Below are positions 21,001 through 27,000 of a DNA stretch of 32,547 nucleotides, piece after piece (within the stretch, counting starts at the first letter, position 1; each line of letters opens with the position of its first letter). Location of the stretch: the IMG/VR virus record IMGVR_UViG_2718217787_000004, positions 1-32,547 of that record; one strand, written 5' to 3'. The position numbers were made by a program. This stretch comes from a virus. Lineage: Duplodnaviria > Heunggongvirae > Uroviricota > Caudoviricetes.

Positions 21001-24000
21001 TGAACCAGCTACCCGCACCGGATGTGGTCGAGGAGCTGGACTTTGAAACCATTCTTGCTGAACGCAAGGCGACACTGATTTCCCTTTACCCGGAAGACCA
21101 GCAGGAGGCGGTCGCCCGTACCCTGACGCTGGAATCCGAGCCTATCGTCAAACTGCTGGAGGAAAACGCTTATCGTGAGCTTATCTGGCGTCAGCGTGTG
21201 AATGAGGCTGCACGGGCGGTGATGCTGGCTTGTGCTGCCGGTAATGACCTTGATGTGATTGGTGCCAATTACAACACCACGCGCCTGACTATCACCCCGG
21301 CAGATGATTCGACTATCCCGCCGACACCGGCAGTGATGGAGTCTGACACCGATTATCGTCTGCGTATTCAGCAGGCGTTTGAGGGCTTAAGCGTCGCCGG
21401 GTCGGTGGGAGCCTATCAGTATCATGGTCGCAGTGCCGACGGGCGTGTCGCGGATATCTCTGTCACCAGTCCGTCTCCGGCCTGCGTCACCATCTCCGTG
21501 CTGTCACGTGAAAATAACGGTGTCGCATCCGAAGACCTGCTGGCCGTGGTGCGTAACGCCCTGAATGGCGAGGACGTCAGACCGGTGGCCGACCGCGTGA
21601 CCGTGCAGTCTGCTGCCATCGTTGAATACCAGATAAACGCCACGCTTTACCTTTACCCTGGCCCCGAAAGCGAACCCATTCGCGCTGCCGCCGTGAAAAA
21701 ACTGGAAGCGTATATCACGGCACAGCACCGGCTGGGGCGCGACATCCGTCTGTCTGCCATTTATGCCGCTTTGCATGTGGAAGGCGTGCAGCGTGTCGAA
21801 CTGACTGCACCGCTGGCCGACATCGTGCTCAACAGTACGCAGGCGTCTTTCTGTACCGAATACCGCGTCGTGACCGGAGGCTCGGATGAGTGATTCGCGA
21901 CTGCTGCCGACTGGCTCATCACCGCTTGAAGTTGCCGCCGCAAAAGCCTGTGCGGAAATTGAAAAAACGCCGGTCAGTATTCGTGAGCTGTGGAACCCGG
22001 ATACCTGCCCGGCAAATCTGCTGCCGTGGCTGGCGTGGTCATTTTCGGTTGACCGCTGGGATGATAAGTGGCCGGAAGCGACAAAACGCGCTGTTATCCG
22101 CGATGCGTATTTCATTCACTGCCATAAGGGCACTATTGGTGCGATTCGCCGTGTGGTGGAGCCGCTCGGCTATCTGATTGAGGTGAGGGAGTGGTGGCAG
22201 CTCAACGAGGAGCCGGGGACGTTCCGCATCGTTGTTGGCGTGCTTGAGCAGGGTATTACCGAGGAAATGTATCAGGAGCTGGAGCGTCTCGTTGCTGATG
22301 CAAAACCTGCAAGCCGCCATCTGATGGGACTGGCTATCAGTTTAAGTACAACCGGCAACATTTTTGCCGGTGCGGGATGCTATCACGGCGACGCCCTGAC
22401 GGTTTATCCCTACACCCCAGAGGCCATTATTGTCGGAGGGGATTATTTCCCGGCCTCGGCCATTCATTTAATTGATAACCTGAGAGTAAACGCATGACAG
22501 TGAAATACTACGCCATTCTGACTAATCAGGGCGCAGCACGGCTGGCTAACGCGACGATGCTCGGCAGTAAGCTGAATCTGACGCAAATGGCCGTTGGTGA
22601 TGCGAATGGTGTCTTGCCGACACCAGACCCGGCACAGACAAAACTGATTAACCAGAAACGCATCGCGCCGCTGAATCTTCTGAGTGTTGACCCGAACAAC
22701 CAGAGCCAGATTATTGCGGAGCAAATCATCCCTGAGAACGAGGGCGGATTCTGGATCCGTGAGATTGGGCTTTATGATGATGAAGGCGTACTCATTGCGG
22801 TGGCGAACTGCCCGGAAACGTACAAACCGCAGTTGCAGGAAGGCAGTGGTCGTACCCAGACTATCCGCATGATTCTGGTTGTCACGAATACCGAAGCCAT
22901 CACGCTGAAAATCGACCCGTCGGTGGTACTGGCGACCCGTAAATACGTGGATGATGAAGTCCTGGAATTAAGGCTGTATGTGGATGAACAGATGAGAAAC
23001 CACATTGCCGCACAGGATCCTCATACCCAGTATGCACAGAAACATAATCCGACATTTACCGGAGAACCAAAAGCGCCGACGCCTGCCGCAGGAAATAACA
23101 CCACGCGGATTGCGACCACTGCGTTTGTTCAGGCGGCTATTACCGCTCTGATTAATGGTGCGCCTGCCACGCTGGACACACTGAAAGAAATTGCCGCAGC
23201 CATTAACAATGACCCGAAATTCAGCACCACCATTAACAATGCGCTGTCAGGTAAGCAGCCACTGGATGAGACGCTGACTCATTTGAGTGGAAAGGATGTT
23301 GCCGGTCTTCTCGCATACCTTGGTTTGGGAGAAGGTTCGGCATTACCTGTTGGTGTACCTGTTCCATGGCCTTCAGCCACTCCGCCGACAGGCTGGCTGA
23401 AATGCAACGGTGCAGCTTTTTCTGCTGAAGAATACCCGGAACTGGCAAAGGCTTATCCGACAAATAAATTGCCTGATTTACGTGGTGAGTTTATTCGTGG
23501 CTGGGATGACGGGCGTGGAGCTGACAGTGGTCGGGGATTATTAAGCTTTCAAAAAGCCACTCTGGTTGAAAGTTTTGGTCTGGTCAGGTCACCAACCACT
23601 GGCTCTTATCGTCTGGTTACCAGACCGACAGAAACTGTTTCTGATAATACGTCTAACTATATGACGACTGATTATGATTCCCGTGAAGGTTTATATTCCC
23701 CTGCAACAGCATACCCCTCTATCGAATTGCCACCAACTGGAGCAGGCGCAGGGGCTGGTTTTAGGGTTCGACCAAGGAATATTGCATTTAACTATATTGT
23801 GAGGGCTGCATAATGGATAACGCCATATTAAATAGCGAGATTATCGCCACCAAAGCAGGGAATATTACCGTCTATAACTATGATGGTGAAACTCGAGAAT
23901 ATATTTCCACTTCAAATGAATATCTTGCTGTTGGCGTCGGTATCCCTGCATATTCCTGTTTAGATGCCCCTGGCACACATAAGGCGGGTTATGCTATCTG

Positions 24001-27000
24001 CCGTTCGATAGATTTAAACTCATGGGAATATGTGCCAGACCATCGCGGTGAAATCGTCTATAACACCGAAACGGGAGACGCCAAAGAAATCACAACTCCG
24101 GGTGATTACCCCGAAAAAACAACCACTATCGCCCCGTTAACGCCATACGATAAATGGGATGGTGAAAAATGGGTGACAGATACTGAGGCACAACACGGTG
24201 CCGCAGTAGACGCGGCAGAAGCACAGCGCCAGTCACTGATTGATGCAGCAATGGCTTCCATCAGTCTGATTCAACTGAAATTGCAGGCCGGACGTAAACT
24301 GACGCAGGCAGAAACAACCAGACTTAACGCTGTGCTGGATTACATTGACGCGGTGACGGCAACAGATACCAGCACCGCGCCGGATGTCATCTGGCCTGAA
24401 CTGCCGGAGGCGTAGGCCATTCAATATCTGGCGCACCGGAAGTATCGATCAGCTCCAGTGCGTCCAGATAATCCAGCCACAAATTATATTGCGCCAGTTC
24501 ATCACCTTTCAGACGACCAATAGCGGCTTTGCCGGGCCATTGCTTACTGTTCATGTATTCGTTGGCCTGGTTAATTAGTAGCTGTCTTTCTGATTCAGTA
24601 ATTTCAATAAGTTCTTCATGCGTGGGTGGAGGAATATCTGCCCACGCAGGCAGCCCATCACCTCCGGCAATACGGATTTTTCCTTGTGGCGGTTCAGCCA
24701 TAAACTCACTGATAATATTTTGATTCACTTCCTTAGCATCTGATAAATCCCATCCCTCTGATTTATATTTATCAATCATATCCACAGGGAAAAAAGCATT
24801 ATACCTTGCGCTATAAACATATTCGTTCATATAAATCACCCTGAATAAAATTACTCACCAACAGCCCACCAACTGTAATTCATCGATACCGTGTCGCTGG
24901 TTGATGACGTTCTGTAAGCAGAATTAAAGCCGGTTAACGTTGGGCCTTCTGCAGTCATCACGAACCCTCGCCCAGCGCCTAAAGGCGCACCGCCATCACC
25001 AGAATGAGTAAGCATGGCGCAGTCCGCTTTTTTGGGGAAAGGGATGCTGAATGTAATTCTCATTGTTTGCGTCGATAATGTCGGCGTAATCGCACCACGA
25101 CCATATTGCAGGATTTTCCCGTTGGGTAATTTCATCCATCCATCACCACTGGCAAACGAGGCCATGTCCGGTATCTGATTTTCCCCTGTTCCCACATCCC
25201 GTTTTGCCGCTTCTCCCAAACCAACGTTTATGAAAATGCAGAGATAACGGGCAAGTGGCATCATCTCCGGTTTTTATTCAGGGGGATGCTCATGCTTATT
25301 GGCTATGTACGCGTGTCAACAAATGACCAGAACACGGAATTGCAGCGTAATGCGCTGGAGTGCGCAGGATGTGAGCTGATTTTTGAGGATAAAATCAGCG
25401 GCACGAAGTCCGACAGGCCGGGGCTGAAAAAACTGCTCAGAACATTATCGGAAGGTGACACTCTGGTAGTCTGGAAGCTGGACCGGCTGGGGCGTAGTAT
25501 GCGGCATCTGGTCATTTTGGTTGAGGAGCTGCGCGAACGCGGCATTAATTTTCGCAGCCTGACGGATGTCATTGATACCAGCACGCCGATGGGGCGTTTT
25601 TTCTTTCATGTGATGGGTGCCCTGGCTGAAATGGAGCGAGAACTCATTGTCGAGCGGACACGCGCCGGACTGGAAGCGGCCAGAGCCAAAGGTCGTATTG
25701 GTGGCAGACGTCCGAAACTCACCGCGAGTGAGTGGGAGCAGGCCGGGCGGTTGCTGGCTTCAGGGGAATCTCGTCAACGTGTAGCGCTGATTTTTGATAT
25801 TGGCCTGTCCACGCTCTATAAAAAATTCCCCTCATCAGCGACAAAGAATAAATTGTGTCATCCCTTAACCAACCGGGACAAATAGCCTGACATCTCCGGC
25901 ACAACTGAAAATACCACTCACCCATTAACCACGGAGTTAAACGGATGAGTGACTATCATCACGGCGTGCAGGTGCTGGAGATTAACGACGGCACCCGTGT
26001 CATTTCCACCGTATCCACTGCCATTGTCGGCATGGTCTGCACGGCCAGCGATGCGGATGCGGAAACCTTCCCCCTCAATAAACCGGTGCTGATTACCAAT
26101 GTGCAGAGCGCAATTGCAAAGGCCGGTAAAAAAGGCACGCTGGCGGCATCGTTGCAGGCCATCGCCGACCAGTCAAAACCGGTCACCGTTGTCGTGCGTG
26201 TGGAAGACGGCACCGGCGACGACGAGGAAACGAAACTCGCGCAGACCGTTTCCAATATCATCGGCACCACCGACGAAAACGGTCAGTACACCGGACTAAA
26301 AGCCCTGCTGGCGGCGGAGTCGGTAACCGGTGTTAAACCGCGTATTCTCGGTGTGCCGGGACTGGATACCAAAGAGGTGGCTGTTGCACTGGCATCCGTC
26401 TGTCAGAAGCTGCGCGCTTTCGGGTATATCAGCGCATGGGGCTGTAAAACCATTTCCGAGGTGAAAGCCTACCGTCAGAATTTCAGCCAGCGTGAGCTGA
26501 TGGTCATCTGGCCGGATTTCCTCGTATGGGATACGGTCACCAGTACCACCGCCACCGCGTATGCCACCGCCCGTGCGCTGGGGCTGCGCGCTAAAATCGA
26601 CCAGGAGCAGGGCTGGCATAAAACGCTGTCCAATGTCGGGGTGAACGGTGTTACCGGCATCAGCGCCTCTGTATTCTGGGATTTGCAGGAGTCCGGTACT
26701 GATGCTGACCTGCTTAACGAGTCAGGCGTCACAACGCTGATTCGCCGCGACGGTTTCCGCTTCTGGGGTAACCGTACCTGCTCTGATGACCCGCTGTTCC
26801 TCTTTGAAAACTACACCCGCACCGCGCAGGTGCTGGCCGATACGATGGCTGAGGCGCACATGTGGGCGGTGGACAAGCCCATCACCGCAACGCTGATTCG
26901 CGACATCGTTGACGGCATCAATGCCAAATTCCGAGAGCTGAAAACAAACGGCTATATCGTGGATGCGACCTGCTGGTTCAGCGAAGAATCCAACGATGCG

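Follow-up and report, generated by a model that had tools for sequence, protein, structure and literature searches.

Does the tail-fibre locus of a P2-like prophage in IMG/VR record IMGVR_UViG_2718217787_000004 still exchange one receptor-binding tip for another, or has it kept only the anatomy of such a switch? The whole stretch of DNA that we analysed (32,547 nucleotides, hereafter the window) matches the chromosome of Escherichia coli strain 10671 (NZ_CP018250.1; cattle faeces, UK) with 100% identity over 9,580 bp. Its element is a P2-like (Peduoviridae) prophage of E. coli O157, apparently complete, which carries the cdt genes. Two inverted crossover sites bracket two opposed cassettes, each made of a fibre tip and a Tfa chaperone, and a gene for a serine DNA invertase stands beside them. 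We conclude, with a probability of roughly 90%, that the locus is a functional two-state inversion switch of the Din (Gin/Cin/Pin/Hin) type, which swaps the fibre's receptor-binding tip along with the matching chaperone. Its features are as follows.

22494-23813, plus strand: tail-fibre gene H as sequenced, coding for a 439-residue fibre (Pfam Phage_tail_fib and Collar).
22494..23320, plus strand: constant 5' part of H, codons 1-276, with Phage_tail_fib over residues 1-150, ending ...LAYLGLGE at the crossover.
23308..23333, plus strand: left crossover site (site 1), inside H, TTCTCGCATACC-TT-GGTTTGGGAGAA.
23322..25222, no strand: invertible segment, about 1.9 kb, from one central dinucleotide to the other.
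23334..23813, plus strand: expressed tip, the StfE-like C-terminal 160 residues of H (Pfam Collar, residues 287-334).
23813..24415, plus strand: G, the TfaE-like chaperone of the expressed tip (Pfam Caudo_TAP, E = 6.6e-32).
24387..24830, minus strand: tfa', chaperone of the silent cassette (Pfam Caudo_TAP, E = 1.6e-30).
24851..25210, minus strand: silent tip H' (Pfam Gp53-like_C, matched on the open reading frame 24851-25264).
25211..25236, plus strand: right crossover site (site 2), TTCTCCCAAACC-AA-CGTTTATGAAAA.
25292..25885, plus strand: serine DNA invertase of the Din (Gin/Cin/Pin/Hin) family, 197 residues (Pfam Resolvase and HTH_7).
25313..25376, no strand: putative Fis-dependent enhancer, inside the 5' end of the invertase gene.
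25313-25327 and 25362-25376: candidate Fis cores GTGTCAACAAATGAC and GCGCAGGATGTGAGC, both G-N13-C 15-mers.

An earlier reading of the window, made from the sequence alone (hereafter the sequence-only reading), had taken the two sites for inverted homologues of the Hin/Gin/Cin type, and realignment bore this out. Site 1 is TTCTCGCATACCTTGGTTTGGGAGAA and the reverse complement of site 2 is TTTTCATAAACGTTGGTTTGGGAGAA. They are inverted copies, equal at 21 of 26 positions and identical over the inner (right-hand) 14 bp, and they form the top-ranked inverted repeat of the region in a repeat search (I1, 27 nucleotides). Both are imperfect 12-2-12 palindromes, with 10/12 symmetric positions in site 1 and 8/12 in site 2. 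The central dinucleotide is TT in site 1 and AA in site 2 on the plus strand, which gives TT in both when they are read as inverted copies. The locus thus has the two inverted 26-bp sites of 12-2-12 structure and common central dinucleotide that characterise the Din family. We searched the whole window for the Din (Gin/Cin/Pin) crossover consensus TTNTCNNAAACCNNGGTTTNNGANAA, allowing at most three mismatches, and recovered sites 1 and 2 only (0.02 expected by chance; at least two sites in 0 of 100 shuffles). Each has a single mismatch to the consensus, and both agree with the Mu gix, D6 cix and e14 sites. Site 1 is identical to the left site of the prophage of strains TW14359 and EC4115, and site 2 equals, at 26/26 positions, the site of e14 (E. 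coli K-12) that is proximal to pinE.

The constant part of H is expressed in either orientation of the segment and is 98% identical in nucleotides to its counterparts in phage pro483 and in T22, up to position 23334. In the orientation sequenced here, it runs into the Collar tip (window positions 23317-23518 are 95% identical in nucleotides to e14 stfE), which is followed by G (90% identical to e14 tfaE). The opposite cassette holds Tfa' and H', the latter a tip without an N-terminal part or promoter of its own that is joined to H on inversion. The start of tfa' is most likely at 24830, which corrects a longer open reading frame at 24387-24839; RefSeq annotates the identical sequence as a gene of 444 nucleotides. 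The Pfam assignments agree with the two opposed cassettes, each a fibre tip with its Tfa, that had been proposed from the sequence; NCBIfam models gave no matches for the fibre or Tfa proteins. The proposed in-frame fusion through the GLGE codons also held up. These codons sit on the identical inner half-site, read from either direction, and a simulated inversion fused H to the gp53-like tip in an open frame of 399 residues. The same fusion is intact in EC4115, and in phage pro483 it is the expressed fibre gene. The frames of the silent cassette are open and free of decay. The locus therefore combines the elements of a fibre-inversion module: a constant N-terminus outside the segment, two opposed cassettes of tip and Tfa within it, and fusions that are in frame both ways.

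The sequence-only reading had placed a serine invertase at 25286..25885. A gene with Resolvase and HTH_7 domains does adjoin site 2, but its start is probably six nucleotides downstream: the ATG at 25292 is, from sequence comparison, the most likely start because it aligns with Met1 of Gin and because the identical sequence is 594 nucleotides long in RefSeq. The Resolvase match (E = 7e-52) comes with that to HTH_7; among NCBIfam models, none reached its cut-off for this protein. The alignment with the Gin structure 3uj3 is ungapped over residues 1-182 (E = 2e-94), and amino-acid identity is 86.7% to e14 PinE, 80.2% to Mu Gin and 78.5% to D6 Cin. The reading frame is intact and full length, and Ser9, within the motif YVRVSTNDQ, is the catalytic serine. 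Residues K46/K47/R50 correspond to positions 47/48/51 of Hin, in the basic helix-B, and Q150/R153/L154 to Hin Q151/R154/L155. Both sets of Hin residues (47/48/51 and Gln151/Arg154/Leu155) are reported to be conserved specifically in Fis/enhancer-dependent invertases (McLean et al., PMC3798978). The resolvase and helix-turn-helix domains with the serine, the high identity to characterised members and the residues linked to Fis dependence all place the enzyme in the Din family.

That such a segment flips in nature is best seen in the O157:H7 strains TW14359 and EC4115, in which a sister prophage, 96-97% identical to the window, occupies one and the same chromosomal position. When these two strains are compared with each other, the flanks are 100% identical (4,814 and 2,840 bp) and the 1.9-kb segment is inverted, being otherwise identical, with breakpoints at the sites; the single BLAST mismatch falls where the two copies of the repeat differ. 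These strains and the window have the same two 26-bp sites. Their invertase is 96.5% identical to that of the window (7 residues differ), and within the first 110 nucleotides of the gene a single base differs. In pro483, the flanks (J-I-H N-terminus on one side, invertase-FI-FII on the other) are collinear with the window, and positions 23317-25224 are reversed, with breakpoints inside both sites. The existence of both orientations, which the sequence-only reading had predicted, is thus established by pro483 and by the EC4115 and TW14359 pair, that is, in strains other than the source.

We then scored the junction as sequenced (junction A) and the predicted inverted junction (junction B) at a coverage of at least 80% in 5,426 complete E. 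coli genomes. Junction A was present in 280 genomes in the version of the window and in 225 in the version of TW14359, and junction B in 74 and 76, respectively. The two orientations in sister loci and these genome counts indicate, indirectly and from sequence comparison, that the enzyme inverts the segment bracketed by the sites, as members of the Din family do. Related systems have been caught in the act: the orientations of e14 coexist in a K-12 derivative, as seen by sequencing and by polymerase chain reaction (PCR) (Goldberg et al. 2014, PMC4272514). In enteropathogenic E. coli (EPEC) E2348/69, sequencing revealed that two P2-like prophages invert, the first between two variants and the second at a locus of three repeats, and the coexisting variants of the three-repeat locus were confirmed by PCR (PMC4272514).

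Two further observations concern the inverted form. An 88-kb plasmid of E. coli TUM11352 (NZ_CP134387.1) has a junction of type B, with H joined to the gp53-like tip, at 20356-20955 and 98.5% identity, which suggests a P2-like phage-plasmid with the same switch. In EC4115 (NC_011353.1, locus coordinates 3974-5173), the RefSeq annotation produced by the Prokaryotic Genome Annotation Pipeline (PGAP) calls H a truncated pseudogene and adds a separate 'gp53-like domain-containing protein'. The fused frame is intact there, at 399 residues, despite this call, which results from phase variation and is an artefact of annotation.

By analogy with Gin and Hin, dimers of the invertase would bind both 26-bp sites and would likely assemble with Fis on an enhancer inside the 5' coding region of the invertase gene itself. 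Cleavage at the central TT/AA dinucleotides and strand exchange would then flip the 1.9-kb segment. In the state that was sequenced, the 276-codon N-terminal part of H would be made with the Collar/StfE-like tip as a 439-residue fibre, with the TfaE-like G encoded downstream. In the flipped state, the same N-terminal part would continue through GLGE into the gp53-like tip, giving a 399-residue fibre, and Tfa' would follow. A lysogen population with both orientations would release virions of two receptor specificities, a form of bet-hedging on host range.

Inversion by Gin, Cin and Hin requires an enhancer to which Fis binds, located in the 5' portion of the gene for the invertase. We looked for traces of such an enhancer by measuring the identity of synonymous codons in an ungapped alignment of eight Din invertase genes, with p-values from permutations. 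Identity is 0.43 overall, rises to 0.69 at codons 7-13 (p = 0.003) and to 0.56 at codons 23-30 (a marginal p = 0.05), and falls to 0.33 in the trough between them. The two peaks coincide with the candidate Fis cores, whose centres lie 96.5 and 145.5 bp away from that of site 2. This pattern of sequence conservation fits a two-site enhancer, and by analogy with the characterised enzymes the switch would depend on Fis and on this element. The spacing of the cores is 49 bp centre to centre, rather than the 48 bp of Hin. The native Hin enhancer lies at about 100 bp from hixL (PMC3798978).

Several points weigh against a working switch, and some of them are what one would expect of a frozen relic, i.e., a locus with the anatomy of inversion that no longer flips (the invertase being weak or unexpressed, or an outer half-site degenerate) and makes the Collar-type tip alone. 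The complete genomes of the exact lineage of the window (10671, MB41-1, 493/89) are all three in the same orientation, although only three genomes say little. A simple sigma-70 scan of positions 23200-26000 gave no match upstream of the invertase, and its total was below that of shuffled sequences. The outer half-sites are equal at only 7 of 12 positions, which is also the case in e14, an element that inverts, and the self-symmetry of site 2 is just 8/12. As for the enhancer, the signal of the second peak is marginal, the first peak could be partly due to translation constraints at the 5' end of the gene, and the candidate cores were assigned by homology and motif features, spacing included. 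Finally, the difference in host range between the orientations is a prediction, made from the precedent of Mu and P1 and from the unrelated folds of the tips (Collar versus gp53-like C). A relic nevertheless seems improbable to us. The invertase is full length and has all the catalytic and Fis-contact residues, and the frames of the silent cassette have stayed open. Site 2 is the very site of e14, which inverts, and both sites equal those of TW14359 and EC4115, between which a clean inversion took place with an invertase that differs by 7 residues. We infer from this that the switch is probably active in the source strain.

Orientation differences could also result from RecA-dependent homologous recombination between the repeats, or from misassembly, with no part played by the invertase. 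In principle, inverted repeats support homologous inversion, and assemblies sometimes mis-orient segments bounded by repeats. We nonetheless regard this explanation as very improbable, and rejected it, because the arms share 14-17 bp of identity and no more, and because the breakpoints fall exactly on 12-2-12 sites of the Din type beside a Din invertase. Such a length is too short for efficient RecA recombination, and a 17-bp repeat is far below what misleads an assembler. Both junctions also recur in independent complete genomes (225 and 76), and inversion has been confirmed in related systems, by PCR in e14 and in the three-site EPEC locus and by sequencing in the two-variant EPEC locus. Least probable of all is a multi-site shufflon with more than two fibre variants, such as the P2-like EPEC locus with three repeats or Min of plasmid p15B: multi-site versions do occur in P2-like prophages (PMC4272514), but this locus has two tip cassettes only and the consensus search gave no third site anywhere in the window.

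The two-state switch is closest to the Pin system of e14 in K-12 (ycfK/stfP-tfaP / tfaE-stfE, pinE), which has the same order of elements: constant 5' part of the fibre gene, site, tip and Tfa, opposed Tfa and tip, site, and invertase. The nucleotide identity is 85% between pinE and the invertase gene of the window and 90-95% in the StfE/TfaE cassette. The latter values and the identity of site 2 indicate that the module is closely related to the Pin system of e14 and sits in the backbone of a P2-like element. The two differ in several respects. The host element of the window is an apparently complete P2-like prophage, whereas e14 is a defective lambdoid one; the second cassette of the window (gp53-like tip and Tfa') is unrelated to StfP/TfaP; the left site differs at 3 positions; and the invertase of the window has a C-terminal extension of 13 residues into the P2 pF promoter region.

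The G/Gin system of Mu and the C/Cin system of P1 and D6 follow the same logic, in that the C-terminus of the fibre (S/S') and a chaperone (U/U') are switched and the invertase gene lies beside one of the sites. They also share the site consensus found here, and the enhancer-bearing 5' coding region of Gin is conserved. The segment is shorter in the window (1.9 kb versus 3 kb in Mu) and its repeats are imperfect (21/26, versus 34 bp and perfect in Mu). The exchanged proteins are different: the tips of the window show no significant similarity to S/S' of Mu and similarity at the level of the shaft only to H of P2, and its Tfa proteins have no significant BLASTP match to P2 G or Mu U/U', whereas P2 G and Mu U share 93% identity.

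Within P2-like elements, the module occupies one common position in the backbone, flanked by I and FI, in pro483, in the T22 'P2' prophage of O157:H43, in the prophage of TW14359 and EC4115, and in the P2-like prophages of EPEC E2348/69. Nucleotide identity from H to the invertase is 93-98% with the relatives that were compared directly (pro483, T22, TW14359 and EC4115), from which the window departs only at a patch of the Collar tip (23549-23768) and by a few substitutions. The invertase was already annotated in the records of pro483, of T22 (as merely 165 residues) and of RefSeq O157 that we examined. A 2024 survey also reported that this hotspot of P2 can hold invertases, with inverted genes beside them. 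In the T22 prophage (NC_041848.1; locus coordinates 2537 and 4398), both sites are perfect 26/26 inverted copies of site 1 of the window; outer half-sites thus differ from lineage to lineage.

The comparison with canonical P2 (NC_001895) qualifies another proposal of the sequence-only reading, namely that the switch replaces the Z/fun region. The silent cassette and the invertase do occupy the position of Z/fun. However, DNA homology to P2 ends at 22332, inside gene I, and restarts at 25865, inside the pF activator-binding site, so that the entire H-G-Z/fun block differs; the N-terminal part of H itself is only 42% identical to that of P2.

Invertible tail-fibre switches such as G/Gin of Mu, C/Cin of P1 and P/Pin of e14 are textbook material. 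The kind of switch described here, related to e14 Pin and Mu Gin, is already known and adds little new to biology, since it is of the classical type, RefSeq holds its exact sequence with every gene annotated, and inversion in P2-like prophages has been published. There are three practical points. The P2-like O157 prophages that carry cdt probably yield particles of two receptor specificities, a point that matters for the spread of the toxin genes. The orientation of the segment is phase-variable, and where outbreak isolates such as TW14359 and EC4115 differ in it, the difference should not be taken as phylogenetic. The H gene of EC4115 shows in addition how the flipped state is mishandled by automatic annotation (PGAP).

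At its 3' end (25843-25885), the invertase gene overlaps pF: its coding sequence and stop codon run into the homologue of the activator-binding (Ogr) site of this P2 late promoter. The pF region supplies the last 13 codons and the stop, and FI begins 59 bp after the stop. As P2 homology resumes at 25865, the C-terminal tail of the invertase, ...KNKLCHPLTNRDK, is encoded by promoter DNA. Transcription of the invertase and activation of the late tail genes may therefore interfere with each other. Neither a terminator nor a promoter was detected in the interval from the fibre operon to the invertase. With the stop codon inside the pF homologue, this raises the idea that switching is coupled to late transcription, through read-through from the V operon and interference at pF, and is boosted in lytic growth rather than constitutive; alternatively, the invertase would act in trans on other Din-type segments of O157. 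We consider these ideas speculative and unlikely.

Three details of the cassettes deserve mention. First, the central part of the Collar tip, 23549-23768, has no nucleotide similarity to the tips of e14, pro483, T22 and TW14359, which are otherwise 90-95% identical, and across this part the H protein is wholly unlike that of TW14359. At an identity of at least 99%, the Collar tip of the window is found in one phage record only. The patch is lineage-specific and hypervariable, and it probably binds the receptor. Second, the 3' ends of G and tfa' overlap convergently by 29 bp (24387-24415), as do those of tfaP and tfaE in e14, by the same 29 bp, and there is no intergenic terminator between the two cassettes at this overlap. 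Third, positions 24835-24850 and 25272-25287 form an inverted repeat of 16 nucleotides (15/16 matching), of which about 0.07 pairs are expected by chance in the region. It gives tfa' and the invertase a nearly equal leader, TTTTATTCAGGG(T/G)GAT, part of which resembles a Shine-Dalgarno sequence. The shared leader is kept in TW14359, and e14 has only a partial version of it upstream of pinE. The repeat could be a shared translation signal or the scar of a module exchange.

The rest of the window is that of a P2-like prophage, with the following landmarks.

1-900: host gene yegS, adjoining the prophage.
1888-2901: integrase gene, at one end of the prophage.
7833-9975, minus strand: cdtABC operon (cytolethal distending toxin), with cdtA (258 residues), cdtB (269 residues, Pfam Exo_endo_phos) and cdtC (181 residues).
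32266 onward: ogr, at the other end of the prophage.

The open reading frames are in the usual P2 order (int, A, Q/P/O/N/M/L, V-W-J-I-H-G, FI-FII-E-T-U-D, ogr). Pfam matches include GPA, Tail_P2_I, tail sheath, GPD and Ogr_Delta, and nucleotide identity to P2 NC_001895 is 94-98% across W-J-I and FI-FII. This gene order, together with homologous structural and replication genes, places the element in the Peduoviridae. Between yegS and the integrase, near the presumed attachment site, lies an open reading frame of 125 codons (1246-1623, plus strand) with no Pfam match. The cdtABC operon is found at the tin/old hotspot of P2, with the replication gene A on one side and the portal gene Q on the other; cdt reportedly occupies this hotspot in about 2% of P2-like phages (PMC9122126).

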